From: Candidatus Dojkabacteria bacterium
Lineage (GTDB): Bacteria; Patescibacteriota; Dojkabacteria; J137
Direction: 5' to 3'
Assembly (NCBI GenBank): GCA_040006935.1
Contig: JBDTVZ010000003.1
Location: 139,988-203,987 of the forward strand
DNA: 64,000 nt
Shown: in pieces, positions 17,396-52,284 of the stretch
Layout: the number at the start of each line of letters is the position of its first letter
Numbering within the stretch: the first letter of the stretch is position 1
Made by a program: the position numbers and the translations under genes
The notes under the pieces: generated by a model
What the model saw: only the letters and a program-made list of their open reading frames with translations
Told to the model about the DNA's origin: nothing
Databases searched by the model: none

Positions 17396-17419
17396 AAGAT
17401 TTAAATAATATTTATATTT

Positions 17420-30882: not shown

Positions 30883-31683
30883 ATGACTCATTTTAAAATA
30901 TCAGTTGTAATCGTTACTTATAATAGTGAAAACGACATTAGAGAATGTCTTGATAGTTTAAAAGATCAAACTTTTAAGGACTTCAATATTGTAGTTGTAG
31001 ACAATGCTTCGAAAGATGATACAGCTAAAATTGTAAAAGATAATTATGCTGATTTTGTGCATTTATTAGAATTGTCAGAGAATAGATTCCTAACAGGTGG
31101 AAATAATTATGGAATGAAATTTTGTATAGAAAATTTTGAATCGGAGTTTGTTTTAGTATTAAATCCCGATGTTAAATGTGAGAGTAACTTAATCGAATCT
31201 CTACTAGTCCCAATGTCTGATCCTATTGTTGGAGCTACTGGTCCAAAGGTAAAGTTCTATCGAAATCAAAATGAAGGTTTAATAAACTCGGCAGGCCTTC
31301 TCTTTGATGGTTTTAATCAAGCGTATGATATTGGTTTTATGGAAAAAGATGAGGGGCAATTTGATGAAGAAAAAACTGTATTTGGAGTAACCGGAACTGC
31401 AATTCTATTTAGATCCAGCATGCTTAAAGAGATTGGTTTTTATTGGGAGAAAATTAAACTTTATTTAGATGAAGTAGAAATGTTTATTCGTATGCAAAAA
31501 ACTGGTTGGAAAGTAATTTATACTCCAAAAACAACAATACACCATAAATATATGCAATCTACTGATAAAATGAAGCTAGGAAGAGTAGAAAAGGTAAAAA
31601 AAGAAGCTTGGCTATGGATTGCAATGAGGCACTATTCTTTAAGAGCAAAGCTAGCTATGATTAAATTATATTTGTTTAAATAA
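30883..31683 (+). CDS. GT2-family glycosyltransferase.
   Basis: ISVVIVTYNSENDIRECLDSLKDQTFKDFNIVVVDNASKDDT (GT-A N-terminal signature with DxD). Confidence 0.8.
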   Translation: MTHFKISVVIVTYNSENDIRECLDSLKDQTFKDFNIVVVDNASKDDTAKIVKDNYADFVHLLELSENRFLTGGNNYGMKFCIENFESEFVLVLNPDVKCESNLIESLLVPMSDPIVGATGPKVKFYRNQNEGLINSAGLLFDGFNQAYDIGFMEKDEGQFDEEKTVFGVTGTAILFRSSMLKEIGFYWEKIKLYLDEVEMFIRMQKTGWKVIYTPKTTIHHKYMQSTDKMKLGRVEKVKKEAWLWIAMRHYSLRAKLAMIKLYLFK

Positions 31684-31686
31684 ATT

Positions 31687-32655
31687 ATGGAGACGGCAAT
31701 TATCATAGTGAACTATAAAACTCCGTGGTATTTAAATAAGTGTTTAGAAAGTGTTTTCGAAAATACTTCGGACTTTCATATATTTATCGCCTTAAATTCT
31801 AACGATGAAGCGTCTTTAAAAGTAGTTAATAAATTTAAGAAAAAATATCCAAACGAAATTACTGTAATTGATAATAAGAAAAATTTAGGATTTGTGGGTG
31901 GTGTAAATTCTGCTTATTCACAAGCAATAAAATATGAACGAGTATGTTTATTAAATAGTGATACTATAGTAACGCCTGAATGGTTAATGGAGTTGAATAA
32001 AGTACTTGATGAAAATGATGATGTGGTGCAAGTGTCACCAGATTCAAATTCATTTTATGTTGATAAAAGTTTATGGAGATTTTCAAAATTACTGCCTCCT
32101 TTTTTAAGTAGATTGTCTTACTTGCAAATTTATACTAATTCACTCCCAGTTTCTACAAACTATGATGATCGTTTTAAAGAAATAAAATTTTATGAGTACA
32201 ATGAGTTCTATAAATTCTGTGCTGGTTTTTGTAATGTTTTCAAAAGTAAATACTTTAAAAATTTAGGATACTTTTGCGATCCAAACATAGTTCACGGTTA
32301 TTGGGACGATTTTGATTTATCAATGTATTTAAGAAAATTTGGAACTATTGGTTGGACCAACAGTTCTTACGTTTTTCATTATGTAAATATAAGTTTTAAT
32401 AAAATATCGGAAGAGAAAAAAGGAATGAAAGAAGAGTTGAATCTATTGAATGGATTATATGTAATGGATAAGTGGTCCAAGGAAGTTTTGGAAGGAATAA
32501 AAGAAATGGGACCAGAAGAATTAGAAGCAAGGCATGATTCCTATGTTGTAAATATGGCTTTAAAATATTTAGAACGTGTAAAAGAAGGTGCAAAATTTAC
32601 AGAGTATATTCAAACAATTCCGGCAAAATCAATTGGTGAAAAATTCCTAGGTTAA
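31687..32655 (+). CDS. GT2-family glycosyltransferase.
   Basis: AIIIVNYKTPWYLNKCLESV...; a 3-nt gap from the upstream GT2. Confidence 0.7.
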   Translation: METAIIIVNYKTPWYLNKCLESVFENTSDFHIFIALNSNDEASLKVVNKFKKKYPNEITVIDNKKNLGFVGGVNSAYSQAIKYERVCLLNSDTIVTPEWLMELNKVLDENDDVVQVSPDSNSFYVDKSLWRFSKLLPPFLSRLSYLQIYTNSLPVSTNYDDRFKEIKFYEYNEFYKFCAGFCNVFKSKYFKNLGYFCDPNIVHGYWDDFDLSMYLRKFGTIGWTNSSYVFHYVNISFNKISEEKKGMKEELNLLNGLYVMDKWSKEVLEGIKEMGPEELEARHDSYVVNMALKYLERVKEGAKFTEYIQTIPAKSIGEKFLG

Positions 32656-34073
32656 GGTCTTACGATATAAACATTATTATCAAAGTTCACAACTTCGCTA
32701 CCTTTCAATTCTTTGAAAAAATCTTCAGATCTTTCAGAACTTTTCTTAAAAATATAAACAGCTTTTTCTTTATTATTAAAAGCATCGTCTACTCCGAAAA
32801 TTGTTGCATTATTTAAATCTCGGTTCGCAAAATATATTACTTCTGGAACATCTGCATAAATTTTTTCATCTGCTTTTACATAACTCCTTAACCAATCTCC
32901 AGCTTCAGTGATTCCAGGTTCTATTTGGCTTCGAGTTTGCTGATTAAAAATTAAACCACCTCGTGTAAATATTAGTCCTGAAAATATTACCTGCAAAATA
33001 CAAATCATAATTATGATTAGTGAACTTTCAATTCTTGATTTAAGACCCACTAATATCTCATTGAAAAATAAACAAATAGAAATTATTGCTAATGGAATCA
33101 CTGTTATGAAATATCTCATCAAGCCTGCTGTTCCAAATAAACCAAATTTCCAAAATAAAACTTGGAGAAGAAAAAATAATGAAAATGAAAATATAATCCC
33201 AAATTCAATCCATTTTTTATTTCTAAAATATTTAAAAATATAAACAGCTGAAATCATAAATAAAGTAATAATCAACGGGTCTAGTTTAAAAAATCCTTCA
33301 AGATAATATGGATAACCACCATGACCGTATTTACCTACGGTTAAAGGATATCCACTATCGATAATATAAAAAATTCTTCCAGTCATTAGAAATCCGAAGA
33401 AGTCCCATATAATAGTCGGCAATAATAATAAAATGAGATTTAAGAAATATGATTTAAAATTTATGAATTTCTTAAGTCTTAAATCATAAATCAAATAAAC
33501 TATGAATATCACAACAAAGAATAAGCCTTCAATTCTAACCAAAGGTAATAATCCAAACATTAAACTCGAAAGTTTGAATTTTTTCTTTAATAGAAAATAA
33601 ATTCCAGCAATTAAAAATAATGCAAAAATTGGTTCTGTCATAATGCTTAAGCTTCCTCTTAGCATGAGGAAGGAAAAATTAGTAAGAACTAGTCCTAGAA
33701 TTTGTATTTGGAAATTACATTTAAGCACTTCTAAAATTTTAAGTACCAAATAGCTTGTCAGTAAAGTTAATAAAATAGTAAGTATTTGCACTGGAAAAAG
33801 ATTCGTAATACCAAATACCATTATCACTAAACCGTAAAGATAAATATAGCCAGGTTTTGACCAAACACCAATTCCGATATTTAAATTATGAGGAAAGTTT
33901 GTAAATAAAGTTTTAGCCTCTAGGAAATGCATATACTCATCTGCTTCCCATCCAAAACCATTTAATTTGGTAAGCAAGAATATTTTAACTAGAAAAATTC
34001 CACAGAGAATAAGTAAGATGATTAAAGACTTATTTCTTAACAATTGTTTTGTAAATTTAAGTTGCTGAATCAT
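32652..34073 (-). CDS. GT-C fold glycosyltransferase, PMT/ArnT (GT39/GT83)-like polytopic membrane protein.
   Basis: About 12 TM helices. A first-loop FGWEADEYMHFLEAKT motif resembling the DE..H/F loop-1 motif of the PMT/ArnT family. Confidence 0.6.
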   Translation of the reverse strand: MIQQLKFTKQLLRNKSLIILLILCGIFLVKIFLLTKLNGFGWEADEYMHFLEAKTLFTNFPHNLNIGIGVWSKPGYIYLYGLVIMVFGITNLFPVQILTILLTLLTSYLVLKILEVLKCNFQIQILGLVLTNFSFLMLRGSLSIMTEPIFALFLIAGIYFLLKKKFKLSSLMFGLLPLVRIEGLFFVVIFIVYLIYDLRLKKFINFKSYFLNLILLLLPTIIWDFFGFLMTGRIFYIIDSGYPLTVGKYGHGGYPYYLEGFFKLDPLIITLFMISAVYIFKYFRNKKWIEFGIIFSFSLFFLLQVLFWKFGLFGTAGLMRYFITVIPLAIISICLFFNEILVGLKSRIESSLIIIMICILQVIFSGLIFTRGGLIFNQQTRSQIEPGITEAGDWLRSYVKADEKIYADVPEVIYFANRDLNNATIFGVDDAFNNKEKAVYIFKKSSERSEDFFKELKGSEVVNFDNNVYIVRP

Positions 34074-34147
34074 CTATTAATTGAGTACATTTTTGTGGTG
34101 AAAGATAGTAAAATTACCTCTATTCAATCAATTTTAACATTAAATTA

Positions 34148-34879
34148 ATGAGCAAATTATCAATTGTAATTCCTGTATGGAACGAAGAAAGAACTCTCGA
34201 AGAACTTGTGAGAAAGGTTTATTCAGTAGATCTTCCAAGAAACTTTGAAAAAGAATTTGTAATTGTTAATGATGGTTCTAAAGATAAGTCATGGCAGATA
34301 ATGCTAAAACTTGCTACTGAATTAAAAAATGTAAAAGCAATTCAAAATGAAAAAAATATGGGGAAATCTCAAACAGTTCGGAATGGAATCTTAAAAACAA
34401 CTGGAGAATTCGTAATTATTCAAGATGCAGATTTAGAATACGATCCAAATGAAATTCAAAATTTGCTAAAGCTTGCTTTAGATAAAAATCTAGACGTAGT
34501 TTATGGAAATCGATTTGGTAAAGATAACAAAGTAATCTACTGGTTAAATTATATTGGCAATAGATTTCTTTCAGTATTTTCAAATGTCTTTACTCTTCCA
34601 CGAGTTAAAGTTTGGATTCCAGATATGGAAGTTTGTTATAAATTAGTTAAGGGAGATGTTTTTAGAGAAATTGCAAAAGATATTACAGCGAAATCGACTT
34701 TTGGATTGGAACCAGAAGTTACAGCAAAACTTTCGAAATATAAAGAAAACGGAAAACATTTAAAATTTGGAATTGTTCCAATTAGTTACTTCCCGAGAAG
34801 TATGGCTGAGGGAAAGAAAATGCATGCAGTCAAAGATGGATTAAAAGCAATGGTGGAAATAATAAAATATAACCTATAA
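34148..34879 (+). CDS. GT2 polyprenyl-phosphate glycosyltransferase (DPM1/ArnC/GtrB-like).
   Basis: LSIVIPVWNEERTLEEL...VIVNDGSKDKS...IIQDADLEYDP; a short soluble GT-A of 243 aa. Confidence 0.75.
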   Translation: MSKLSIVIPVWNEERTLEELVRKVYSVDLPRNFEKEFVIVNDGSKDKSWQIMLKLATELKNVKAIQNEKNMGKSQTVRNGILKTTGEFVIIQDADLEYDPNEIQNLLKLALDKNLDVVYGNRFGKDNKVIYWLNYIGNRFLSVFSNVFTLPRVKVWIPDMEVCYKLVKGDVFREIAKDITAKSTFGLEPEVTAKLSKYKENGKHLKFGIVPISYFPRSMAEGKKMHAVKDGLKAMVEIIKYNL

Positions 34880-34881
34880 TC

Positions 34882-35601
34882 ATGAGTATTAAATCTAATG
34901 ATAAAATCTACGTAATCATTCCGGCTTTTAACGAAGAACCTGTCATCTCTCAAGTTATTAAATCTGTTCAACAAGAAGGCTTTGAAAACATAATTGTTGT
35001 AAACGATGGTAGTTTTGATAATACCTCAACCGTTGCAAAAGAAACTGGTTGTATAGTTTTAGATCATTTAGTTAATCGAGGAAAAGGTGCAGCAACACAA
35101 ACAGGAATGGATGCTGCAAAACTTCTAGATGCAGATTACGCCGTGACTTTAGATGCTGACGGTCAGCATAACCCTGCAGACATTCATGAAATTCTAAAAC
35201 CCTTATTAAGTAAAGAAGTGGATGTCTCTCTCGGGAGTAGGTTCTTAAGTAAGCAGCCCATTCCTTTTTCAAGAGTTTTTGCAAACAAAGTTGGTAATTT
35301 AATTACGTTTTTATTCTACGGTATTCATGTATCAGACAGTCAGTCGGGATTCCGTGGATATAATACCAAAGCTTTAAAAACAATTTACACAACTTTTGAT
35401 CGATATGAATTTGAATCCGAAATAATTCATCAAATAAATATTCATCAATTAAAATATAAAGAAGTTCCAATTACGGTTTCATACTCAAATTATTCTCAAA
35501 ATAAATGGAAGAATATAAACAAAGGGACTCAAGTTTCGCAAACATTTCTTAATGGTTTCAATATGCTTTTTAGAATGATTATTAGAAGTATTACAACATG
35601 A
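34882..35601 (+). CDS. GT2 polyprenyl-phosphate glycosyltransferase (GtrB/ArnC-like), second copy.
   Basis: IYVIIPAFNEEPVISQVIKSV...VVNDGSFDNT...TLDADGQH. Confidence 0.75.
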   Translation: MSIKSNDKIYVIIPAFNEEPVISQVIKSVQQEGFENIIVVNDGSFDNTSTVAKETGCIVLDHLVNRGKGAATQTGMDAAKLLDADYAVTLDADGQHNPADIHEILKPLLSKEVDVSLGSRFLSKQPIPFSRVFANKVGNLITFLFYGIHVSDSQSGFRGYNTKALKTIYTTFDRYEFESEIIHQINIHQLKYKEVPITVSYSNYSQNKWKNINKGTQVSQTFLNGFNMLFRMIIRSITT

Positions 35602-35945
35602 CAGAAATATTTACTTATCAAATTATAGTTCTAATAGTTTGCGCACTATTAGTTTTGAGAACAATTTATTATTTTCTAAAAGGAATAAAATCTTTTAGAG
35701 AAGTAATTCTAGCAATTATAATTTGGGGAACATTTAGTTTAGTTAGTTTATTTCCTGTTGTTCTTCAAGACTTTGCACATTTACTTGGTTTTCAGCTTGG
35801 AGTTAATGCTGTATTAGTAATCTCAACTATAATCATTTTCTTCCTACTCTTAAGACTAATTGTTCGTGCAGATACACAAGAAATGATAATTACAAGATTA
35901 GTTAGAAGTTTAGCGTTAGAAGATTTAATGAAAAATAAGAATTAA
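35598..35945 (+). CDS. Small 3-4 TM membrane protein accompanying the GtrB-like GT2 (DUF2304/GtrA-like role).
   Basis: Hydrophobic 115-aa protein; 4-nt overlap with the upstream GT2. Confidence 0.4.
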   Translation: MTEIFTYQIIVLIVCALLVLRTIYYFLKGIKSFREVILAIIIWGTFSLVSLFPVVLQDFAHLLGFQLGVNAVLVISTIIIFFLLLRLIVRADTQEMIITRLVRSLALEDLMKNKN

Positions 35946-35954
35946 TTTCTAACT

Positions 35955-37100: not shown

Positions 37101-37102
37101 CT

Positions 37103-37804
37103 ATGCAGTTTGTTAAAGAAGATCAAAAATATTTTAACTCAAAGTATTTCAATAATAATGGTCAAAGCGGAGATAGATTAGCTCTTCAATTTTACTTTGA
37201 TATTCTAAAAAATTATTTAAAAGACGGAAAAGTTTTTGAATTTGGTTGTGGTGAGGGATATTTGTCTAAAAGAATTGCAACTAAATTTGATAGTTATGCG
37301 TACGATTTATCTGAATACTGTAGAAATAAAACCAAAGAGATTTCACCAAAATCTACAATAATAAATGCTGAAGCTGATTTCCCCTCAGATTCTTTTAATG
37401 CAGTGGTTACTCTTCATACATTAGAACATGTCCCAAATCCGCCGGAAACATTAGCTCTATTAAACAAATCCTTAAAAGTAGGAGGAATATTATTATTTGT
37501 TGTCCCTAACCCAAATGGATTAGGCCATAAAATAAAAAGAGAGAAATGGTTTGGATATAGAGATACTACACATATTTCCATGTATGAAAGTAGCAAATGG
37601 AAAGAGTTAGTTAAGTCATCAGGGTTTGAAATTGTAAAAACGGCATCTGATGGATTCTGGGATGTTCCCTATGTAAAATATCTTCCAAATATCCTACAAA
37701 AATTAATCTTTTTCCCAAGTGCTGGAATACAAGTTATTCTAAAAAGACTCTTCTTACCCGATTGGTTTGGAGAAGATTTAATTATGGTTGCAAGAAAGAA
37801 ATGA
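37103..37804 (+). CDS. Class I SAM-dependent methyltransferase.
   Basis: Motif I VFEFGCGEGYLS. Confidence 0.75.
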   Translation: MQFVKEDQKYFNSKYFNNNGQSGDRLALQFYFDILKNYLKDGKVFEFGCGEGYLSKRIATKFDSYAYDLSEYCRNKTKEISPKSTIINAEADFPSDSFNAVVTLHTLEHVPNPPETLALLNKSLKVGGILLFVVPNPNGLGHKIKREKWFGYRDTTHISMYESSKWKELVKSSGFEIVKTASDGFWDVPYVKYLPNILQKLIFFPSAGIQVILKRLFLPDWFGEDLIMVARKK

Positions 37805-38181
37805 AAAAAAAATCTATGTTCACACTAATCGATATCATTCTCTTTATATCCATTACAATAATTGCATCTATTGCAAATGTATTATTAAAAATTGGATCCG
37901 GTAAATTTATTTCGTATATTAATCCTGTACAATTCGTAACAGACAACCTCACAATACTTTTGGGTTATGTTTTGTATCTTATTCCTTTATTTCTAACAGT
38001 TATGTTATATAAAAAATTTAAGGTGAGTTTAGTTCAAACTGTGGCAGCAAGTGTTTATATTCTGACTCCATCATTGGCTGTAATCGTAGGGGTGGAAAAT
38101 TTAAATATTTATAAAGTAATAGGAATTGGATTAATAACCACGGCAGTGATTTATATAGTAAATTTAAGCTCTAAAGAATAA
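37801..38181 (+). CDS. SMR/EamA-like 4-TM small membrane protein (ArnE/ArnF-like putative lipid-linked sugar flippase subunit).
   Basis: About 126 aa with 4 hydrophobic helices; ATGA overlap with the methyltransferase stop at 37801-37804. The tracked start at 37762 is probably too early. Confidence 0.5.
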   Translation: MKKKSMFTLIDIILFISITIIASIANVLLKIGSGKFISYINPVQFVTDNLTILLGYVLYLIPLFLTVMLYKKFKVSLVQTVAASVYILTPSLAVIVGVENLNIYKVIGIGLITTAVIYIVNLSSKE

Positions 38182-38522: not shown

Positions 38523-38538
38523 TTCTTCTGCTTTGGAA

Positions 38539-39390
38539 TTAAATCTTAAATGCCAGTATTCCCAACATATAAAATCCCCAAATAACTACTAAAGTAATTA
38601 GCGGTTTGCTTTTAAATAAAGCAGACACAGGATCCTCTACTAGCTCTCCTGAAAATAATTCATAGAAATAAAGCATGAATCCTAGTACAACAAAAACTAT
38701 AGAAAGTTCAAAGGCCAAGCTTTTGGTAGTAGTGTATAAAGAATAGAACAAAATCGTGCTGAAAGAGGCAAGAGTGAGTACATATTTCAGAAAGTCATTA
38801 GTGTAGTGTTCCAGAACTTTTCTACTAGAACTGCCATTATTTGCCAGTTCCGCGTATCTTTTCCCTGAGCCTAGGAATAAAGCAAAGAAAAATGTTGTTA
38901 ATAAAATCCACGAAGACAAATCTACACCTGTCACAATACCTCCTGCCAACACTCTGATAATGTAGAATACTGCGAGAACAATAATATCCACTACAGCGAC
39001 ATGTTTTAAGTAAGTAGTATAAAGAATGTTGAGTATTAAATAGGTCACTAGAATCAAAACAAAGCTTGTTTCTAAATATAATGCAATAAAGATTGAAATT
39101 ATCAAAAGAATAGCTGCTAAAACCCAAGCAAATGATACACTTATAATATTTGCAGCAATTGGTCGAGTTTTCTTTTTAGAATGTTTACGATCACTTTCAA
39201 CATCTCTAATATCATTGAAAATATAAACTGTGCTTGCCATTAGCGAAAAACTTACGAATGCAAGAATATTAACTAAGTCTTTATTGAAATGTATAAATTC
39301 ACCAGAAAATATTAAAGGAAGGAATAAGAATCCATTCTTAACCCACTGGTGAACTCTCATTAATTTTAGAATGCTTTTTAATTTCTTCAT
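38539..39390 (-). CDS. UbiA-family prenyl-phosphate 5-phosphoribosyltransferase-like enzyme (DPPR synthase / Rv3806c-like).
   Basis: NDIRDVESDRKHSKKKTRPIAANIIS closely matches the ND..DvE.DR.HP.K..RPIA signature of the decaprenyl-phosphate phosphoribosyltransferase subfamily. The start is assigned to MKKLK, giving an ATGA overlap with the PAP2 stop. Confidence 0.65.
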   Translation of the reverse strand: MKKLKSILKLMRVHQWVKNGFLFLPLIFSGEFIHFNKDLVNILAFVSFSLMASTVYIFNDIRDVESDRKHSKKKTRPIAANIISVSFAWVLAAILLIISIFIALYLETSFVLILVTYLILNILYTTYLKHVAVVDIIVLAVFYIIRVLAGGIVTGVDLSSWILLTTFFFALFLGSGKRYAELANNGSSSRKVLEHYTNDFLKYVLTLASFSTILFYSLYTTTKSLAFELSIVFVVLGFMLYFYELFSGELVEDPVSALFKSKPLITLVVIWGFYMLGILAFKI

Positions 39391-39881: not shown

Positions 39882-39882
39882 A

Positions 39883-40104
39883 TTATAAAGCAGTTCTACC
39901 CATAATCAGATTAAGCAAATCTTTAACACTTATCAAAGCTACTTTTATCCCATGTACTTTATCTGGAGTAAGTGCAAAAACAAAATAATCTATAAAGAAA
40001 ATTAAAAATACGATTAATATTAGTGACTCTATAACTATTTTATTTTGGACTAGTTTTTTAAATATTTGTTTCATAAATTGCATAAGTATGTAAATCGCTT
40101 GCAT
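39883..40104 (-). CDS. Small hydrophobic protein between the PAP2 and GT-C genes.
   Basis: 73 aa with 1-2 TM helices; it overlaps the GT-C 3' end by 47 nt. It may be real or may reflect an alternative C-terminus of the GT-C. Confidence 0.3.
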   Translation of the reverse strand: MQAIYILMQFMKQIFKKLVQNKIVIESLILIVFLIFFIDYFVFALTPDKVHGIKVALISVKDLLNLIMGRTAL

Positions 40105-42304
40105 TAGTTAAACCAAATCTAATTTTTGATATTGAATTATATTTTAAAGGTATTGTTTGTGTTCCAAACATCACACCATTTCCATTTTCGGGAGCAAAAT
40201 CCAAGTTGACAAATGTCTCATCATTTCCTAGGAATATATGGAAAAATATTGCAGGATTCTCAATTTCGTCGGGTTTATTTAAATAAAATTCGATACTAAA
40301 GGTTTTAACTCCATAAACTTCGGTAAGTTTATAATCTTTAATCACAACCGCTTTACTAATATCGTTTTCAAATGTTTTTTCTGAAAGGGTCTTTTTAGTT
40401 GAAGTATTTGGTTTATATGCAAATAGGAAATGAGGTCCATCAATATCCGTAATTAATTTTTCGAATAACTCTGGATGTTTATTAGCAATTGCTGCTTCTG
40501 GCATTCCGTCCAAAACAACTACATAAACTGGGTTAACTTTAGCAACTGCATCTAGCCACACTGAATCGTCACCTGGTCTTGCGGGAACAAAAACAACGTC
40601 ATTACTAAAGTCTTTATTGTACAGAGCATAAGGAAACCAAATTTTATCTCCTATTACTACACTCTGATTTTTGCCTAGTGTAGTATTAATAAGTATATTC
40701 ATGTCCCGTGTCTTGAGTGAACTTGCATAACTAATATTATCCGCATTTATTAATTGTTTGATAGTATCTACCGGTCTAAAAAAAGTTCCATCTATAGTCA
40801 GTACAAAACTTAATCCAAATAATAAAAATAGAACTATAAGTACAATATAGCGTCCCAATTTAGAAGTAATATACTTATTTAATAAATATATGAACGGAAT
40901 TATTCCAGCTATACATATAAATCCCGTATAGTGTGGAATCCAATTCCCTGGAAGCACAAGTAATATTAAAGTAGGAACTATTATAAAAATAAATAAATCT
41001 AAATATTTCTTTAAAATCGAAATTAAAAAAACAATCAGCATACTTGGTAATAAGAATACAAACCAAATCGAACCAAACCCATCTAATTTGCCATCAGCTA
41101 TATAATAAACTCCAGACCATCCTTCTCTCTCCTCCCAAACATAGATTAACCTTTGTATAAGATTTCTACTTTCAATTTGAGGTAGGCTATTAGTAAAATC
41201 TAAACCAGCCCATTCACCCGGGAAATGTATCCCTAAAACTGTAAATTCCACTGGGAATAATGGATTACCAAAGTAGTACCAACTCCTAAAATACCAAAAT
41301 GAGCCAAGTACAAACATCGCTACAATAATAAATCCAGTGAGAATTACTAAAGGTTTAAAGATTTTTCTCCAACCAATTTGTTTGAATAAAACTATTAAAA
41401 ACCCTAAATAGAAAACAAGAACATAAATTATCGCAGAAGATTTTGATCCAAAAATTATTCCTAAAGATAAACAGATCCCAACAAAAAGTGTAAGATTTTT
41501 TCTTTTGAAAACTTCTTTAAAATTTATATTTAACAGGAGATATAAAGAAGCCATTAATAAGGTCCACATTGTAATGTCTACTTTTTCGGTTTTTGAGACT
41601 AATAATAATATTGGTATGCTATAAACTAAAAGTCCTCCAATAATTGCAAATCTTTTCTTAGATCCAAAATGACGACAAAGTAAGTAAATAACTCCACTTA
41701 GGGAAATGAGAAAGTACATATTAGTTATTTCTGCAAGGACGTCACTTCGGAAGAAAATCATATTCCATAAATCCAGAAGTTCGATATCATGTGGGAAACT
41801 AATGGTATACAAATGTGTATAATCAAAGTACCTTATTTGACCAGTTTTAATAATATCGGCTACAAATCCTAGATGATAATGATAATCATCCCACGAAGTA
41901 GGCGGATGAACTATAATCAGAATCAAAAGATTAGTTAAAGTAAATATTGCGAGAATAATAAATGCCCACAAAATAATATCTCTTTTATTAACTTTCTTGA
42001 ATTCATTATTAAAATTCTTTAATTTACTTAACAATATCTTTGGTCTAAATCTGGAGACATAAAGTAATATAAGTGATATCCCAATATTTAGAGTAAATAA
42101 TTCAACTGGGTATAAACGTTTAAGAATTAGTCCCAAGAAGAAAGAAGTTAGAATAATTTGAGTAATTCCAAATATGAAAGTAAGTATAAAATTGAATCGT
42201 CTTTGTAAATTAAACTTCTCTTTGAAAAACCAGTACCAACCTAAAATCAGAAAGGAATTTATGATTATATATGCGAGTAAATTTATTAGGAATGACTCAG
42301 TCAT
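40058..42304 (-). CDS. Large GT-C fold polytopic membrane glycosyltransferase (arabino/ribofuranosyltransferase-like; lipid-linked donor user).
   Basis: 748 aa. About 13 or more TM helices in the N-terminal 500 aa with a WDDYHYH loop motif after an early TM helix, and a soluble ~230-aa C-terminal domain. Confidence 0.55.
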   Translation of the reverse strand: MTESFLINLLAYIIINSFLILGWYWFFKEKFNLQRRFNFILTFIFGITQIILTSFFLGLILKRLYPVELFTLNIGISLILLYVSRFRPKILLSKLKNFNNEFKKVNKRDIILWAFIILAIFTLTNLLILIIVHPPTSWDDYHYHLGFVADIIKTGQIRYFDYTHLYTISFPHDIELLDLWNMIFFRSDVLAEITNMYFLISLSGVIYLLCRHFGSKKRFAIIGGLLVYSIPILLLVSKTEKVDITMWTLLMASLYLLLNINFKEVFKRKNLTLFVGICLSLGIIFGSKSSAIIYVLVFYLGFLIVLFKQIGWRKIFKPLVILTGFIIVAMFVLGSFWYFRSWYYFGNPLFPVEFTVLGIHFPGEWAGLDFTNSLPQIESRNLIQRLIYVWEEREGWSGVYYIADGKLDGFGSIWFVFLLPSMLIVFLISILKKYLDLFIFIIVPTLILLVLPGNWIPHYTGFICIAGIIPFIYLLNKYITSKLGRYIVLIVLFLLFGLSFVLTIDGTFFRPVDTIKQLINADNISYASSLKTRDMNILINTTLGKNQSVVIGDKIWFPYALYNKDFSNDVVFVPARPGDDSVWLDAVAKVNPVYVVVLDGMPEAAIANKHPELFEKLITDIDGPHFLFAYKPNTSTKKTLSEKTFENDISKAVVIKDYKLTEVYGVKTFSIEFYLNKPDEIENPAIFFHIFLGNDETFVNLDFAPENGNGVMFGTQTIPLKYNSISKIRFGLTNASDLHTYAIYETNI

Positions 42305-42423
42305 TAGTTACAACAATAATTAGGTATAATATTAAATAGTTTATAACATAATACTTAAAATATGGACAAATATCTAAACTACAGTAGAGTTATGGGATTG
42401 AATATAAATCAATATATATTATA

Positions 42424-46521: not shown

Positions 46522-46545
46522 AAAATTCTTTTAAATAATTATAAT

Positions 46546-47553
46546 TTGATATATATTCATTGTATGAATCCTGTAAGAAACATTATACCTAAAGTTAAAA
46601 CAATAATTAAAGAATTCCTTGGTTTAAACTACCCATATGTTTATGTTCAAAGACGACTTAGCTCTTTTGCAAAAGTCGTTTCTCCAATCTCTAATAAGGA
46701 AGTATATAACAAAGAGGTAGATATTATAATGCCTATCTATAACAGATTAGCGGAAACAAAAATGGCTATTGAGTATTTATTTAAGAATGCCAATATAAAA
46801 TTCAAACTAATCCTTGTTGATAATAACTCAGATAATAAAACGCAGGAATATCTTAAGAATTTATCACATAAAAATATTAAAGTAATTTTTCTTAAAGAAA
46901 ATCTTGGTGCTTCAATCGCCCGAGAATCTGGATTAAAAGAGTCACAGAATGAGTTTGTAGCATTTGTTGATAACGATATCTTAATCATGCCAAATTACTT
47001 TGAAAATCTTCTAACAACAATTCAAACTGATAATAAAATTGCTGGGGTCCAATCCAAAGTTGTTCTACCAAATTTAAAGATTCAAATAAATACTCCAACT
47101 TTCATGATAAAAGATCAAGATATTGTCTTCACAGATAAAGATATTGACAAAAAATTCGACGACAAATCCACTTTTGAATCTAAAACATGTAACTATATTC
47201 CAATAGGTGCAACTTTATGGAGAAGAGAAGTTTTTAACAGGTTCAGCTTTGACGAAGGAATGAATACAGCTTTTGAAGATAATGACTTCGCATATTCTGT
47301 ATATAAGGGAGGATATATTTTTAGAAACTGTCCTAAAGCAATTGCTTTGCATATAAATTCAGAATTCTCTCCCAAAACCATTCAAGATAATAGTTATATG
47401 GCAGGAAGATATTCAAATGATAAATTACTCAAAAGTCTTAAAATCTTCTATAAAAAACATCAGCTAATTTTCTATTTTAAGACTAAAGAAGGGTTTGCTA
47501 AATATTTAGGTTTTAGCAATCCAGAAGAATATGAAAACTCCCTCAAAGCCTAA
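46546..47553 (+). CDS. GT2-family glycosyltransferase.
   Basis: VDIIMPIYNRLAETKMAIEYL...LVDNNSDN...FVDNDI. Confidence 0.7.
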   Translation: MIYIHCMNPVRNIIPKVKTIIKEFLGLNYPYVYVQRRLSSFAKVVSPISNKEVYNKEVDIIMPIYNRLAETKMAIEYLFKNANIKFKLILVDNNSDNKTQEYLKNLSHKNIKVIFLKENLGASIARESGLKESQNEFVAFVDNDILIMPNYFENLLTTIQTDNKIAGVQSKVVLPNLKIQINTPTFMIKDQDIVFTDKDIDKKFDDKSTFESKTCNYIPIGATLWRREVFNRFSFDEGMNTAFEDNDFAYSVYKGGYIFRNCPKAIALHINSEFSPKTIQDNSYMAGRYSNDKLLKSLKIFYKKHQLIFYFKTKEGFAKYLGFSNPEEYENSLKA

Positions 47554-48488
47554 AGTACTTGCCCATTAAATATCTTCAAGAACCAACTTAACAATTTGTA
47601 TGGAGGTGTAGATTTTATTTTAGTTATTTTGTTCTTTAATCTATCTAATTCTTCACTTTTTACGGATAAGATTTTTTCTGTCTCGACTAATTCATTAAAG
47701 ACTTTCTTATTCTCAGCAACTAATATATCGTAATCATTTATCGTTGCAATGATTCTTTTTTCCTCTTGTAAAATTATTTCAATATAATTTTTTTTATAAA
47801 ACTCTTCGTTATTCTCAATTACTTTTCTCAAGAGTTCAATTTTCCTCTTCCTCGCCTCAACTATCATTGAATTTTTCTTTACTCGATAATTAAATAATTC
47901 TTCTGGAATACAAATCCACTTATAACCTTTCGCAATAATTGAAATCCAAAAACTCATATCCTCAAATCCACCATGTGCCATGTTTGAAGAATATCCCCCA
48001 ACTTCTTCCCAAACCTTGCGCTTAAACATTGAAGCAACATGAACTCCAGTACCTCCCTCTGTTGCTAACTTCATTGGATCGTAATCCGAAGTTTTCCAAA
48101 GTTCATCGATTTCACCAAAAGTTCTTACCCAGGTTGTTGCTATTGCAACTTTTTCATCAGAATTATCTAATGCACTTACACATTTTTCTAAAAATTGCGG
48201 AAAATATTTATCGTCAGCATCAAGGCAGCAAATATATTCACCTTTTGCAATTTTAATACCATTGTTTCTTGCATTGGGAAGCCCTTGATTTTCAGTAGTC
48301 AGTACTTTTGTTTTTGGTTTATTGTAATTAGCTAATAGCTTATTAGTTGCCTCATCAGTAGAACCATCATTAACAATGATAATTTCAAAGTCTTGGAAAG
48401 TTTGTGCAAGAACTGAGTTTACTGCCTCATCAACATATTCTCCATGGTTATAGCAAGGAATTACAACTGAGACTTTAGGTTCAGCCAT
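47550..48488 (-). CDS. GT2-family glycosyltransferase.
   Basis: VSVVIPCYNHGEYVDEAVNSVLAQTFQDFEIIIVNDGSTDE...CLDADD. Confidence 0.8.
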   Translation of the reverse strand: MAEPKVSVVIPCYNHGEYVDEAVNSVLAQTFQDFEIIIVNDGSTDEATNKLLANYNKPKTKVLTTENQGLPNARNNGIKIAKGEYICCLDADDKYFPQFLEKCVSALDNSDEKVAIATTWVRTFGEIDELWKTSDYDPMKLATEGGTGVHVASMFKRKVWEEVGGYSSNMAHGGFEDMSFWISIIAKGYKWICIPEELFNYRVKKNSMIVEARKRKIELLRKVIENNEEFYKKNYIEIILQEEKRIIATINDYDILVAENKKVFNELVETEKILSVKSEELDRLKNKITKIKSTPPYKLLSWFLKIFNGQVL

Positions 48489-48489
48489 T

Positions 48490-49185
48490 TTACTTATTTT
48501 TAATAAATATCATTGCATTCTGTGATAGCCACCATGCAACTTTCTTTTCTTTTAAACTTTCTCTCATTTTCATCGTATCTTCCTTTTTATATTCAAATCC
48601 TTGTTCCTCAAAAAGTTTAATCCAATATTCATTAGGCTGCTCATTAATATGGTCATCTCCACCTTGTCCCGGAATCGCAGCAGTAAAGAATAGCTTATCT
48701 GCATGTCTTGTCATATTACCAACTAAAGTAGAAGCAAATTTAGCCTGTAAATGCTCTGCAACTTCTATACAGATTACAAGATCAAATTTTTTCCCTAACT
48801 CTAACTTCTTTCTTAAATCGAAAACTTGAATATATTTAGGATCAACTAATGCATTTTGTTTTGCCCAGTCGCTTCCATCAACCCCCTGTGCATCAACCCC
48901 CCGTTTCAAAAATTCTCTTAGGTAAGGACCATTTCCGCAACCAACGTCCAGCAATGTTTTAGGTTGAAAATAATTATATAGTTCATCAATAAATCTATTC
49001 ATATTGGGAAGATTTGAAATATCTTCGTAATATTCGCCATTATAAATTGTGCTAATTTCATTTTTACCCTGTACTCTTGCAAGGAATTTCCTAACTTTAT
49101 ATTCTAAAGATTTAGAAGCTCTGAAGATTACGTATTTGAAGCCGTGATTCTTGAAATATAAATAGTAATTTGAAAAAAGATTCAT
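48490..49185 (-). CDS. Class I SAM-dependent methyltransferase.
   Basis: Motif I LLDVGCGNGPYL; 1-nt gap to the downstream GT2. Confidence 0.7.
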   Translation of the reverse strand: MNLFSNYYLYFKNHGFKYVIFRASKSLEYKVRKFLARVQGKNEISTIYNGEYYEDISNLPNMNRFIDELYNYFQPKTLLDVGCGNGPYLREFLKRGVDAQGVDGSDWAKQNALVDPKYIQVFDLRKKLELGKKFDLVICIEVAEHLQAKFASTLVGNMTRHADKLFFTAAIPGQGGDDHINEQPNEYWIKLFEEQGFEYKKEDTMKMRESLKEKKVAWWLSQNAMIFIKNK

Positions 49186-49252
49186 AACATTATCTGATAA
49201 AATATTGCTACAATTATAATCTAAAAAAGTAATTTGTTATACAGATTTTATT

Positions 49253-50209
49253 ATGCTAAATGAGATTAGAGATATTTTATTATCGATAGTTCTATTTATT
49301 TTTTTTAAACCTGTTCTTCTTGTTGGTAGACTTCTGCTATCTAAGAAAGCTTATAAGGCGCTTTCATTTAAATTAATAACCTTCACTAACAATGTTTTCG
49401 GTTATTATCGAGATCAATTATCCGATTATAATAAAATAAAATATGACATGAGGAAATATCGAGATACTTACGATAGAAAAGGGTTAGAATTATATTTTCA
49501 ATTAGTCTCGGCAGAGGATTTATTTTTAAATAAAAAAATCTTAGATTTTGGTTGTGGAGTAGGTGGAAAAGCTTTAGAAATTTTAAAATATAATCCAGAG
49601 CACGTTATGGGAATTGATTTATCGAAAAGAGATATCGATTATGCTAAGGAACTTTTAAATGATTCGAATAAATCAAAATTGTTTTTTGAATATAAAGATA
49701 TTCTCGACCTCAAAGATCCTGAATCATTCGATAGTATCGTATCTTTCACAGTCTTTGAACATGTGGATACTCCCTTGTTATTACCAATTCTTGATAAAAT
49801 GTACGAACTATTAAAAAAGAATGGAAATTTATTAATAGTATTTAATCATTTTAATGATAGATTCGGTTCCCATCTAAAAGAATATATTTTCCATCCATGG
49901 CCTCAAAGTTTATTTGATGAGGAAATGATTTACGAATACTGGAATCAGTCACTAATTTCAGATAAGAACTCAAATGATAATAGTTATTTCCCGAAAAATT
50001 ACAGACATGGAGTAGGAAACCATAATGAAGATTGTTATATAAATCTAAATAAATTAAATATCAGTGATTTCGAGAAGATAATTAAGCAGACTAAATTTAA
50101 ATATGTAGACAGATACGATTATTCTCGATTGAAGATTCTAGATAAGTTAAATTTTCTACCTTCTAAATATCTACAAGGATCTAGTGTTTATTATCTTAAG
50201 AAGGGTTAG
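49253..50209 (+). CDS. Class I SAM-dependent methyltransferase.
   Basis: Motif I ILDFGCGVGGKALEIL. Confidence 0.65.
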   Translation: MLNEIRDILLSIVLFIFFKPVLLVGRLLLSKKAYKALSFKLITFTNNVFGYYRDQLSDYNKIKYDMRKYRDTYDRKGLELYFQLVSAEDLFLNKKILDFGCGVGGKALEILKYNPEHVMGIDLSKRDIDYAKELLNDSNKSKLFFEYKDILDLKDPESFDSIVSFTVFEHVDTPLLLPILDKMYELLKKNGNLLIVFNHFNDRFGSHLKEYIFHPWPQSLFDEEMIYEYWNQSLISDKNSNDNSYFPKNYRHGVGNHNEDCYINLNKLNISDFEKIIKQTKFKYVDRYDYSRLKILDKLNFLPSKYLQGSSVYYLKKG

Positions 50210-50210
50210 A

Positions 50211-51503
50211 TTAATCTAATTTTGTAACAGTGAATTGTGGTTCCACAAATACTTTACCCCAACGTACTTGTTTGTAGTAAACATCAATCTTTTCAAAGTT
50301 TGCAAGTTGATGTAGATCTTGATAATAAGGTGGGTAATCTAAACCTTCACTTATTACAAATGAAACGTAATAAATTCCAGGATTTAGTGGTAGATTTGCT
50401 TCGCATTCATATTCTAAAATATTTCCAATTTTTACTGGTGGGGTTTTTAAAGGCTTAAGATTATATGTTGAATGTAATCCATATAGTTGATGATTAATAT
50501 CATCTTTAATCATTACACCTAATATCATTTGATTGTTTGTATCAATATTAGATTTAACTTTAACTTTGAACTTAAAATTCTGATTACTTTCCAATTTCAA
50601 AGTAGACTTGCCTGTGTGGTCAATAAATTCGTAACTTATGATTTCTGCCTTCTCTCCACCGATTGTATAACTTAACTCATGAGCTCCCACTTCGGTTGTA
50701 TTGTCGTTTTTCTTTTCTTTTTTCTCCTTTCCTTTCACATCTTTTTTACTCGTACCTTCTGTTTCTTGAAATAACTGCTCATATATATAAGTTACCTTGT
50801 CTGGTTTACCATCTTCTACTAATTCATGATGATCAATTAGAATTGCTCTATCGCAAAGATCTCTAACTGCCTGCATACTATGTGATACAAAAAGAATAGT
50901 TTTTTGCTCTTGTTTTAATCTTTTTATAACTTCAAAAGATTTTTTTTGGAAAGCTAAATCACCAACGGCTAAAATTTCATCCAATAAAAATACATCTGCA
51001 TCAGTTTGAATTGCAATTGAGAAGGCTAGCCTTACAACCATTCCACTGGAGTAATTCTTCACTGGAGTGTCTATAAATTCTCTTAATTCCGCAAAATCTA
51101 TAATATCGTTAAGTTTGTTATCTAAGAATTTTTTAGTCATTCCTAGAATTGTCCCGTTTAGATAAATATTTTCTTTACCAGACAATTCAGGATTGAATCC
51201 AACTCCTAGTTCTAGAAAAGGAACTAGTTTTCCATTTATCTTAACTTTACCACCTTTATCGGGAGAATAAATCCCTGCAATGATTTTCAAGAGAGTGCTT
51301 TTTCCACTTCCGTTTTTACCTACAACTCCTACAAATTCTCCTTTTTTTATTTCAAAACTAATATTTTTTAAAGCTTTAAAATGCCTAGATTTCCCTTGAT
51401 TAAAGAAAGAACTAAATAAAGATCTCAGAGTTTCTTTTTTATCATCTCTTAATAAGAAAGTTTTAGAAACATTTTGAATTGTAATTGCATTATCCTTATT
51501 CAT
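50211..51503 (-). CDS. wzt: Polysaccharide ABC exporter ATP-binding protein (Wzt/TagH-like) with a ~160-aa C-terminal extension.
   Basis: GKNGSGKSTLLKIIAG Walker A, LSGG-like YSSGMVVRL, a Walker B; then a Lys-rich linker and a beta-rich C-terminal domain. Confidence 0.8.
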   Translation of the reverse strand: MNKDNAITIQNVSKTFLLRDDKKETLRSLFSSFFNQGKSRHFKALKNISFEIKKGEFVGVVGKNGSGKSTLLKIIAGIYSPDKGGKVKINGKLVPFLELGVGFNPELSGKENIYLNGTILGMTKKFLDNKLNDIIDFAELREFIDTPVKNYSSGMVVRLAFSIAIQTDADVFLLDEILAVGDLAFQKKSFEVIKRLKQEQKTILFVSHSMQAVRDLCDRAILIDHHELVEDGKPDKVTYIYEQLFQETEGTSKKDVKGKEKKEKKNDNTTEVGAHELSYTIGGEKAEIISYEFIDHTGKSTLKLESNQNFKFKVKVKSNIDTNNQMILGVMIKDDINHQLYGLHSTYNLKPLKTPPVKIGNILEYECEANLPLNPGIYYVSFVISEGLDYPPYYQDLHQLANFEKIDVYYKQVRWGKVFVEPQFTVTKLD

Positions 51504-51504
51504 T

Positions 51505-52284
51505 TTAGAAAAATTCCGCTATTTGTTTAACTTTGTAATTAAAATAGATCCAACCTAGAATCACAATTAATACGCTAACTGCGAAGTAAGCCAACATCAA
51601 GGGTAAATTAATATCACCATAAATTCCAAACCCTGCTCTAACCTGATTTAAAATTATTCCAATAGGATTGAATCTTATTATCTTAGCTGTAAATGAATCA
51701 AATAAACTATTGTCCACCACATACATAATTGGTGTTGCCCAGAATAATAGAAAGAATGCGAGTTCGAAAATATTTTTTAAATCTCTAAACCTAACTGTAA
51801 GAATACTTGTAAAAAAAGATAAACCTAAATTAAATAAGAAAATAATCAGTGTCAAAAACAGAACATACAAAATTCCCATTGGGTTTATTTCTTTACCCTG
51901 CAGAACTAATATTATAAAAATGAAAATTAGATTAATGAACAAATTTATTACACCACTAAACAATGCACTGATTATCGCTATCTGCCTTGGGAAATTAACT
52001 TTCAATATAATATGCGCTCTTTCCAATAGTGACATCTGTCCTAGTATTGCGAGCTCATTAAAGTATGTATAAAAAACTATTCCAATTAATAAATATAAGG
52101 GGTAATTTTCTATACTTTGACTTGATATCTTAGACCACACAAAGTACATTACAAGAAATGTAGCGTATGGTTTGATTAAAACCCATAGAATACCAAGAAT
52201 TGAATTCTGATATCTCATCTTAAAACTCGTTTTCACCAGCTCATTCAGAAGGTCAATTTTTGCTCTATCAATTATTTTTGCCAT
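51505..52284 (-). CDS. wzm: ABC-2 type polysaccharide exporter permease (Wzm/TagG-like).
   Basis: 259 aa with 6 TM helices in ABC-2 topology; a 1-nt gap to wzt. Confidence 0.75.
   Translation of the reverse strand: MAKIIDRAKIDLLNELVKTSFKMRYQNSILGILWVLIKPYATFLVMYFVWSKISSQSIENYPLYLLIGIVFYTYFNELAILGQMSLLERAHIILKVNFPRQIAIISALFSGVINLFINLIFIFIILVLQGKEINPMGILYVLFLTLIIFLFNLGLSFFTSILTVRFRDLKNIFELAFFLLFWATPIMYVVDNSLFDSFTAKIIRFNPIGIILNQVRAGFGIYGDINLPLMLAYFAVSVLIVILGWIYFNYKVKQIAEFF

Follow-up and report, generated by a model that had tools for sequence, protein, structure and literature searches.

Twenty-two contiguous, tightly packed glycan genes were found at positions 30883-52284 (~21 kb, coding density ~99%) of a 64-kb window, the whole stretch of the Candidatus Dojkabacteria contig JBDTVZ010000003.1 that was analysed. 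Coordinates are positions in this window unless another locus is named, genes are labelled g01-g21 plus g12b (Table 1), and L001-L027 are labels for related loci recovered for comparison. Domain content was taken from Pfam and NCBIfam scans, with ~60 open reading frames (ORFs) of the window scanned against Pfam, ~10 of which have no match. The genes fall into three modules, A (g01-g06), B (g07-g13) and C (g14-g21), and together they are probably the main cell-envelope glycan assembly locus, directing an ABC-transporter-dependent polysaccharide that is decorated after export.

An initial annotation, made from the letters of the sequence, had recognised a large surface-glycan biosynthesis and export locus here, which the gene content supports, although parts of its gene list needed correction. 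Six stand-alone family 2 glycosyltransferases (GT2) are present rather than five (g01, g02, g04, g05, g16 and g17), and only two of the four family 4 enzymes (GT4) lie within the locus (g07 and g14), two more being encoded outside it (13316-15523 and 22290-23369). The GT2-GT4 fusion (g15), three S-adenosylmethionine (SAM) methyltransferases (g08, g18 and g19), Wzm/Wzt exporter (g21 and g20) and two membrane-embedded GT-C enzymes (g03 and g13) were confirmed, the latter with AlphaFold models and Foldseek matches in the PDB; the two GT-Cs are matched at 100% identity by ABI721_04835 and ABI721_04890, NCBI proteins from a 213,507-bp contig of a Dojkabacteria metagenome-assembled genome (MAG). In place of two lipid-carrier modules, three candidates for the formation of polyprenyl-phosphate sugars are seen: g04, g05 with its DUF2304 neighbour g06, and the UbiA-family enzyme g11 with the PAP2 phosphatase g12. 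With homolog-supported starts, the "many" ATGA overlaps reduce to three (g05/g06 at 35598, g08/g09 at 37801 and g11/g12 at 39387) and one TAATG (38181), and a conserved 63-aa gene (g12b) had been left out.

Table 1. Genes of the glycan locus, followed by other features of the window (TM, transmembrane segment; CBM, carbohydrate-binding module; PPPRS, polyprenyl-phosphate 5-phosphoribosyltransferase).
Feature	Description	Position	Strand	Basis or remark
g01	GT2, 266 aa	30883-31683	+	PF00535, 83.6 bits
g02	GT2, 322 aa	31687-32655	+	PF00535, 57 bits
g03	GT-C membrane glycosyltransferase, 473 aa	32652-34073	-	AlphaFold/Foldseek
g04	Soluble GT2 of ArnC/GtrB/AglJ/PgfS type, 243 aa	34148-34879	+	PF00535, 102 bits
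g05	GT2 of PpgS/GacI type, 239 aa	34882-35601	+	NCBIfam PpgS
g06	DUF2304 membrane protein, 115 aa, 3 TM	35598-35945	+	PF10066, 56.1 bits (cut-off 25.5)
g07	GT4, 381 aa	35955-37100	+	PF00534, 121 bits
g08	SAM methyltransferase, 233 aa	37103-37804	+	PF13489, 87 bits
g09	Small membrane protein, 126 aa (homolog-supported ATG), 4 TM	37801-38181	+	Paralog of g10
g10	Small TM protein, 113 aa	38181-38522	+	Weak EamA/ArnE matches
g11	UbiA-family PPPRS/DPPRS (Rv3806c type), 283 aa	38539-39390	-	NF008978; longest ORF from 39432
g12	PAP2 membrane phosphatase, 164 aa	39387-39881	-	PF01569, 61 bits
g12b	Single-TM microprotein, 63 aa	39883-40074	-	Conserved ORF directly downstream of g13
g13	GT-C, 748 aa, C-terminal beta-sandwich CBM-like domain (~635-748)	40058-42304	-	AlphaFold/Foldseek
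g14	GT4, 424 aa	42424-43698	+	PF00534, 114 bits
g15	GT2-GT4 fusion, 943 aa	43690-46521	-	PF00535 (residues 121-246), PF00534 (residues 752-923)
g16	GT2, 335 aa	46546-47553	+	PF00535, 79 bits; 43% homolog in L012
g17	GT2, 312 aa	47550-48488	-	PF00535, 121.6 bits
g18	SAM methyltransferase, 231 aa	48490-49185	-	PF13489, 50.8 bits
g19	SAM methyltransferase, 318 aa	49253-50209	+	PF13649, 60.9 bits; one TM (residues 7-25)
g20	Wzt ABC ATPase with Wzt_C	50211-51503	-	PF00005, 76.9 bits; PF14524, 69.7 bits
g21	Wzm ABC-2 permease, 259 aa, 6 TM	51505-52284	-	PF01061, 48.6 bits
Secreted protein	251 aa, no Pfam match	30014-30769	-	
S8 subtilase	940 aa	52320-55142	-	GC 0.39
Acyl_transf_3 protein	1009 aa, OafA-like O-acyltransferase candidate	3003-6032	+	
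Big_5 protein	Secreted, Big_5 x3 + Peptidase_C39_2	6035-8056	+	
Tandem-GT4 protein	735 aa	13316-15523	-	
Fic/DOC-domain protein		16301-17530	-	
Glycoside hydrolase	Putative, GHL6/GH114-like	18783-20021	-	
GT4		22290-23369	-	
23S-rRNA-intervening-sequence protein	Four-helix bundle	59448-59909	-	

Chromosomal site and composition

The window has a GC content of ~31-33% and carries an alpha-operon segment on the minus strand (24.7-30 kb: IF-1, S13, S11, S4, RpoA, L17, L13 and S9), as well as recA, trigger factor, LeuRS, enolase and pyruvate kinase. A genome scan with the g03 family gave 11 loci, the source genome not being among them. In the closest relative recovered, Dojkabacteria GCA_047445235.1 (ribosomal proteins 78-93% identical), g01-g06 are found at the same site (recF...S9-L13-L17-rpoA-S4-S11-S13-IF1-251-aa protein) and in the same order, at 63-73% identity and with a two-gene insertion inside the block. 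Beyond g06, this genome has different GT2s, Methyltransf_21 proteins, a GT2-DUF6492 protein and a Wzt of only ~30% identity. A second, more distantly related MAG (52-71% identity in ribosomal proteins) has g01-g04 at the same site at 42-68% identity, and no ortholog of g07-g21 of comparable identity was found in these two related genomes. The g01 ortholog is in the same position in L008/L010 (72% identity) and is 49% identical in L012, while g02 has orthologs in L008 and L009 (68%), L012 (55%) and L011 and L013 (52-53%).

The locus thus occupies a set position in the chromosome, where its left third is conserved and the rest can be exchanged, a pattern of conserved site and variable interior that appears to be that of O-antigen and capsule loci and not of a recent insertion. 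The initial annotation had called the locus possibly strain-variable, and part of it does differ between related genomes, g07-g21 being replaced in the one close relative compared. That annotation had also named conserved gene order together with ordinary composition as the outcome that would speak against it, and gene order proves to be conserved for g01-g06 and not for g07-g21.

The 251-aa secreted protein that forms part of the shared site has a Thr/Pro-rich linker (TTGTTPPPPPPNQTTGSTTGTT) and a C-terminal end that resembles a sortase sorting signal, with IPVTG ahead of a hydrophobic helix and a tail of KKKK. It directly adjoins g01 in L008 (78% identity) and L012 (44%), and is possibly a glycoprotein substrate or a wall-anchored partner.

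Acquisition of the region as a mosaic, strain-variable island gained horizontally, as was first supposed, would be in line with the best identities of g07-g21 in the nearest relative, which are 28-39% versus 63-73% for g01-g06. In addition, module B is found in contigs of 26-49% GC, so travels across lineages, and PPPRS homologs are present on 91 plasmids, including those of Rhizobium, Lactococcus and haloarchaea. However, the locus cannot be told apart from its flanks by GC at third codon positions (GC3) or by codon usage (GC3 of 0.229 inside versus 0.233 outside; root mean square difference in synonymous-codon usage of 0.035). The slightly lower GC of the locus stems from codon positions 1 and 2 (0.395/0.280 inside versus 0.428/0.335 outside), i.e. 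from amino-acid composition. No tRNA genes or Rfam families were found in the window with tRNA and Rfam scans, no integrase or transposase was matched with Pfam, and a search for long repeats flanking the locus turned up only the tandem repeats of the S8 protease gene and the similarity of GT2 paralogs. The atypical composition, mobility genes and tRNA or repeat borders of genomic islands are therefore all missing, and the site and left third are kept in two related genomes, so that foreign origin as an island is considered quite unlikely. The frequent strand switches reported earlier are real (9 of 21 junctions), but strand switching was rejected as a distinctive trait of the locus, as it is not significantly enriched over the rest of the window (11 of 38 junctions; Fisher p = 0.39).

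The putative pentofuranose module

By sequence, g11 belongs to the PPPRS family. It scores 211.9 bits against NF008978, 'decaprenyl-phosphate phosphoribosyltransferase' (cut-off 207), matches Mycobacterium tuberculosis Rv3806c over its full length (PDB 8j8j, E 3e-47) and keeps the Rv3806c motifs NDxRDVExDRxH, RPIA and GKRYAEL. By analogy with Rv3807c, the PAP2 protein g12, whose gene is translationally coupled to g11, may be the polyprenyl-P-5-phosphoribose 5-phosphatase. PAP2 adjoins UbiA in L002, L003, L006, L023 and L025, and adjoins the GT-C gene in the short contig L024. A HAD-family phosphatase stands in its place next to UbiA in L004 (9289-9918), a locus resembling those of the candidate phyla radiation (CPR), and a HAD phosphatase is also found in L022 (7903-8481) on the Lactococcus plasmid pLLF27D, where the order is hypothetical 533-aa protein, PPPRS, HAD-IB and GtrA. 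The exchange of HAD for PAP2 in L004 and L022 looks like a non-orthologous replacement of the phosphoribose phosphatase.

Pfam and PDB sequence searches with g13 were empty. Its AlphaFold model (pLDDT 74.9) was matched by Foldseek to ArnT (5ezm, E 6e-5), STT3, Pmt4, AftA, ALG9, PimE, AftD and AftB, and the top Foldseek matches in the PDB are exclusively GT-C enzymes for both GT-C models of the locus. The motif SWDDYxYH is invariant in the family and is located at the expected GT-C catalytic loop. The g13 subfamily comprises about nine clusters at 50% identity (E < 1e-160), nested inside a Pfam-less GT-C family of 351 clusters (E <= 1e-30). A metagenome scan with the g13 family returned two short contigs only, and a tblastn search of phages was without match.

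Contexts of g13-family genes were compared in nine other loci (L001-L004, L006, L023-L025 and L027), about seven of which are independent (L023 and L024 resemble L006). The family stands beside UbiA and/or a phosphatase in nine of nine. Beside these GT-C and UbiA genes, homologs of the GT4 g07 are found at 46-63% identity in L001, L002, L003, L025 and L027 and at 30% in L004; this type of GT4 is absent from L006, and the flanks of L023 and L024 are too short to tell. A methyltransferase and a homologous microprotein often accompany the family: g08 has homologs within module B in L025 (50%) and L004 (37%), and ORFs of 55-68 aa that share the motif F-x-DYF...TPDK with g12b follow the GT-C gene in L002, L003, L004 and L027. 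In the related metagenomic contig L027 (2810-4634), a gene for phosphoribosyl pyrophosphate (PRPP) synthetase (Pribosyltran_N) is found directly upstream of the UbiA-GT-C pair, a context that speaks directly for PRPP as donor substrate. By this neighbourhood, the GT-C is associated with a pentose donor that derives from PRPP and is linked to polyprenyl, suggesting that g13 is a pentofuranosyltransferase.

Between the methyltransferase and UbiA genes lie the two small membrane proteins g09 and g10, which are paralogous (hhalign probability 98%, E 1.3e-13). Weak signals for g10 were obtained with EamA (PF00892, E 3.8e-4), ArnE (NF011625, E 2.3e-3) and LicB/DMT proteins in the PDB; its identity is 48-56% in L001-L003, while g09 is conserved in L001, L002, L003 and L027, the four loci that have the pair. 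By analogy, g09 and g10 may form an ArnE/ArnF-like lipid-sugar flippase pair. In the proposed route, the PAP2 phosphatase would remove the 5-phosphate from the g11 product to leave polyprenyl-P-ribofuranose, the ArnE/ArnF-like pair would flip this lipid outward, and g13 would pass the pentofuranose to the exported glycan, possibly assisted by its CBM-like domain and the 63-aa microprotein. The acceptor residue is probably added or altered by the associated GT4, together with the methyltransferase.

Ribofuranose is the likeliest sugar to be delivered by module B. No DprE1-like FAD oxidase (FAD_binding_4) or DprE2-like gene was seen in the window or any related locus, making an unepimerised ribofuranose donor the simplest reading, and undecaprenyl-phosphate ribofuranose (undP-Ribf) is a proven direct donor in Citrobacter youngae O1 (PMC11127046). 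Epimerisation of polyprenyl-P-ribose by an outside or unrecognised enzyme, giving D-arabinofuranose or xylofuranose as in mycobacterial arabinan and Pseudomonas pilin glycans, is rather unlikely by comparison with a direct ribofuranose donor, although the split UbiA and PAP2 genes have the arrangement of mycobacterial Rv3806c/Rv3807c, and the window covers 64 kb of a 213-kb contig. Short-chain dehydrogenase/reductase (SDR) genes often adjoin module B in relatives, which would also suit an epimerised sugar, but they are either Gmd-type (TIGR01472, 375.8 bits) or LegB/GalE-like, PseB- or UDP-GlcNAc-dehydratase-type. An SDR pair as substitute for DprE1/E2 was accordingly rejected, these being nucleotide-sugar enzymes, and the Gmd-type members point by sequence to GDP-6-deoxyhexose synthesis.

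It is also conceivable, if improbable, that the g13-type GT-C founds a new family at the level of CAZy and that, with the GT4, microprotein, ArnE/F-like pair and PPPRS plus phosphatase, it makes up a self-contained pentofuranosylation machine borne mainly by the CPR. Such a machine could go beyond side-chain decoration, either by polymerising a domain of ribofuranan or arabinan type or by assembling a pentose glycolipid on lipids scavenged from the host, and its product could matter for the attachment of epibiotic bacteria to their hosts.

Proposed hexose addition, backbone assembly and export

The second GT-C enzyme, g03, belongs to module A. Pfam and PDB sequence searches were empty for this protein too, and its AlphaFold model (pLDDT 89.5) was matched by Foldseek to STT3 (6ezn_F, E 6e-6), ArnT (5ezm), ALG9, PglB, AftA and Pmt4. 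Residues E43, D45 and H49 are invariant in 25 homologs, in a motif GWEPDxYxH at the expected GT-C catalytic loop, and among the relatives some carry PF02366 (protein mannosyltransferase, PMT) and one is named 'Gpi18-like mannosyltransferase'. A GT2 resembling g04 lies within ~4.5 kb of the g03-family gene in 8 of 11 loci and is its most consistent partner. The best NCBIfam matches of g04 are AglJ, PgfS and ArnC, all under cut-off, and g04 is a candidate polyprenyl-phosphate-hexose synthase paired with g03. For g05, the top NCBIfam match is PpgS (NF058614, 136.8 bits, E 6.9e-40, equivalog cut-off 370), followed by AglJ (122 bits), making it a candidate polyprenyl-phosphate-N-acetylhexosamine (HexNAc) synthase. 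GacJ, a DUF2304 protein, joins GacI in a complex and stimulates it, and Rv3632 stimulates PpgS (bioRxiv 10.1101/180810); g06 may likewise be a GacJ/Rv3632-type activator of its neighbouring GT2. The pairing of a GT2 synthase with a DUF2304 partner known from the GacI/GacJ/GacL (PpgS/Rv3632/Rv3779) system is found here with g05 assigned at family level. Together, g04 and g05, the latter with its activator, would make polyprenyl-P-hexose or -HexNAc, which g03 would transfer extracytoplasmically.

Module C holds the export genes and the remaining Leloir glycosyltransferases. An ABC-2 permease (g21) is encoded with an ATPase (g20) that has a C-terminal Wzt_C domain (PF14524, residues 281-404, E 3.4e-19), the combination typical of the Wzm/Wzt pathway. 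The best NCBIfam matches of g20 are TagH and the galactan Wzt/RfbE, both under cut-off, and g21 weakly matches the galactan Wzm/RfbD permease. The halves of the fusion g15 are paralogous to g17 (41%) and to g14 (36% over 380 aa), and multi-module glycosyltransferases are found at its position in L004, L006 and L025; g15 is by analogy a candidate chain polymerase, and g14 a candidate adaptor or backbone enzyme. As possible chain terminators, a role played by WbdD-like methyltransferases in this kind of pathway, there are two methyltransferases near Wzt (no kinase domain was found), and methyltransferases also precede Wzt in L008, so that g18 and g19 are candidate chain-end modifiers. All Leloir glycosyltransferases of the locus score far under every NCBIfam equivalog cut-off.

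In the cytoplasm, the backbone chain would be extended from a polyprenyl-diphosphate primer supplied by an initiating transferase encoded elsewhere, the adaptor role falling to single GT2 and GT4 enzymes and polymerisation to the GT2-GT4 fusion. Either or both of the adjacent methyltransferases may cap the non-reducing end, the cap would be read by the C-terminal domain of Wzt, and Wzm/Wzt would export the finished chain. Outside the cell, the acceptor for the pentofuranose and the hexose or HexNAc would be this polysaccharide, presumably linked to the wall.

Protein glycosylation by part or all of the locus was weighed against this assembly of an exported polysaccharide, the GT-Cs, above all g03, being then PMT- or oligosaccharyltransferase-like, and the 251-aa sortase-signal protein, the S8 protease or pilins being candidate substrates. 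The STT3, PglB and Pmt4 matches of g03, its PMT-bearing and Gpi18-like relatives, and the retention of the secreted linker and IPVTG protein next to g01 in L008 and L012 are in agreement with this, and there is precedent in TfpW, a GT-C that puts arabinofuranose (Araf) oligomers on pilin (bioRxiv 10.1101/2020.04.19.049825). However, GT-C folds are all alike at such similarity (TM-scores 0.4-0.64), and polymer assembly is typically marked by Wzm/Wzt with Wzt_C alongside a multi-module polymerase and terminal methyltransferases; protein glycosylation is thus unlikely. A membrane-anchored lipoglycan, similar to lipomannan, lipoarabinomannan or lipoteichoic acid (LTA), in which the GT4 glycosylates a diacylglycerol (DAG)-type lipid and the GT-Cs extend the chain outside, is very unlikely. 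The weak NCBIfam matches of g07 to alpha-monoglucosyl-DAG synthase, processive DAG glucosyltransferase and the LTA-anchor glycosyltransferase IagA/BgsA would suit it, but these are generic (27-47 bits versus cut-offs of 400-500). Similarly, no ABC exporter lies close to the minimal module in L001 and L027 and the window has no LCP ligase, but module B is embedded in a Wzm/Wzt locus in the window and ABC genes are adjacent in L004 and L006 as well.

Several observations weigh against export with later decoration as proposed here. No relevant literature on phosphoribosyltransferases or glycosyltransferases of Patescibacteria or Dojkabacteria was found. The donor of g13 is indicated solely by gene neighbourhood, and when the g13 profile was aligned with the GT-C candidates that adjoin PPPRS on the Lactococcus plasmid and on a phage-like fragment (L022 and L021), the hhalign probability was <1%. 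The small-TM pair is absent from L004, L006 and L025, so a flippase role is not obligatory, and the GT4 that regularly accompanies the module is not accounted for by a three-component model. In module A, the score of g05 is well under the PpgS equivalog cut-off, and no dedicated flippase was matched in the locus (Wzx/PST or GtrA). Epimerases could lie outside the window, which is ~64 kb of the 213-kb contig. As the initial annotation observed, neither an initiating transferase of WecA, WbaP or TagO type (PF00953/PF02397) nor a nucleotide-sugar gene is found by Pfam among the ~60 scanned ORFs of the window. The 64-kb window also has no LCP or ligase-type attachment enzyme, so that the acceptor may be a wall polysaccharide, a lipoglycan or a protein. 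The lack of WecA/WbaP and nucleotide-sugar genes is not anomalous, given that the initiating WecA is usually encoded elsewhere in ABC-transporter-dependent pathways (PMC11127046) and that the pentofuranose donor would come from PRPP.

The S8 subtilase beyond the exporter genes has a noticeably higher GC content (0.39), and the C-terminal 300 residues of this protein consist of six tandem Trp-rich repeats of ~46 aa (VWTRYxTDGxTWQPW), which show up in the DNA at 52417-53177 with a period of 132-150 nt. In L004/L005, too, the glycan genes have an S8 protease at their border, and the repeats might bind wall glycan. Further glycan-related genes are found outside the locus: the OafA-like O-acyltransferase candidate, the tandem-GT4 protein, whose design is like that of a 751-aa protein in L006, the putative GHL6/GH114-like hydrolase and the other GT4. 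The Fic/DOC-domain, 23S-rRNA-intervening-sequence and Big_5 proteins have no evident link to the locus.

Relation to known systems

The glycan locus is genuine and correctly placed, compositionally ordinary and architecturally familiar. Its composition was said to be unpredictable from known O-antigen or teichoic acid loci, and the sugars are indeed unreadable from the genes, with all Leloir glycosyltransferases far below equivalog cut-offs; the architecture, however, fits the logic of the Citrobacter youngae O1-type O antigen and of the streptococcal group A carbohydrate. CPR genomes of this kind are expected to be very small. The locus accounts for one fifth of a 100-kb stretch, and its product is presumably important for the cell surface, the contact point with hosts and phages.

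In C. youngae, undP-Ribf is made from PRPP by a PPPRS and a phosphatase and exported by a flippase, after which the pentofuranose is put on an O antigen by the founding member of GT136, a GT-C that carries a CBM at its C terminus (Kelly et al. 2024, PNAS, PMC11127046; commentary PMC11194591). That O antigen is ABC-transporter-dependent, with a CBM on Wzt, a methyl-containing terminator, a multi-module polymerase, adaptor GT4s and WecA elsewhere, and three-component systems are described by the authors as widespread (PMC11127046). The Dojkabacteria locus shares with C. youngae O1/O2 the genes of an ABC-transporter-dependent backbone: a Wzt with a C-terminal carbohydrate-binding domain, a candidate methyl-adding terminator beside the exporter, a multi-module candidate polymerase with single adaptor-like glycosyltransferases, and an initiator that would be located elsewhere. 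The PRPP-dependent UbiA-type synthase is represented by g11 (NF008978, 8j8j) and the phosphatase perhaps by the PAP2 protein coupled to it, next to a candidate flippase and a GT-C with a beta-rich C-terminal domain, and Ribf needs no epimerase. The phosphatase is a fused HAD domain (PRP) in the prototype and a separate PAP2 protein here, with HAD in L004. The MATE flippase has no counterpart in the locus, where Pfam gave no MATE/MOP match; the candidate for its role is the pair of paralogous 4-TM proteins, whose similarity to EamA/ArnE is weak. The transferase is GT136 there and here a Pfam-less GT-C with a C-terminal beta-sandwich, which may or may not belong to GT136, and a GT4, a methyltransferase and the 63-aa microprotein travel with the Dojkabacteria module. 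The host is a monoderm-type CPR bacterium without lipopolysaccharide, and the backbone enzymes are GT2/GT4 as opposed to GT4/GT1.

The mycobacterial pathway of decaprenyl-phosphoryl-arabinose and arabinan has a separate Rv3806c-type PPPRS directly coupled to PAP2 (Rv3807c), GT-C transferases, a Wzm/Wzt-type exporter (Rv3781/Rv3783) for a chain built in the cytoplasm, and a PpgS/Rv3632-like pair of GT2 and DUF2304 proteins, used there for galactosamine decoration of arabinogalactan; all of these gene types have counterparts here. The Dojkabacteria locus, by contrast, lacks DprE1/DprE2, a sequence relationship to Aft or Emb and a GlfT-type equivalog, and its organism is of 31% GC and phylogenetically remote.

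Module A is closest in plan to the group A carbohydrate genes GacI/GacJ/GacK/GacL with GacD/E (bioRxiv 10.1101/180810), in which the gene for a soluble GT2 polyprenyl-P-HexNAc synthase likewise precedes that of a DUF2304 activator, a polymer exported by an ABC transporter is decorated by a GT-C in an organism with no outer membrane, and the initiating GacO/WecA is encoded elsewhere. The Wzx-type GacK, rhamnose synthesis or rhamnosyltransferase equivalogs and the GacH-type glycerol-phosphate transferase are absent from the Dojkabacteria locus. With ArnC/ArnE/ArnF/ArnT, module B shares a small 4-TM pair of DMT/SMR type in adjacent overlapping genes, which would flip a polyprenyl-P-pentose for a GT-C, and ArnT is the top structural match of g13. 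The ArnE similarity is marginal (E 2e-3), the donor would come from PRPP and not from UDP-Ara4N, and this organism has no lipid A.

Thus, the route from PRPP to polyprenyl-P-pentofuranose, known from mycobacteria and lately from Gram-negative O antigens, appears to extend into the CPR, in a new combination of parts that includes a PAP2 phosphatase, an SMR-like pair, an unclassified GT-C family and a microprotein. A GT-C with SWDDYxYH next to UbiA may serve as a bioinformatic marker for further examples. The locus extends an established concept rather than founding one, and provides a testable set of enzymes.

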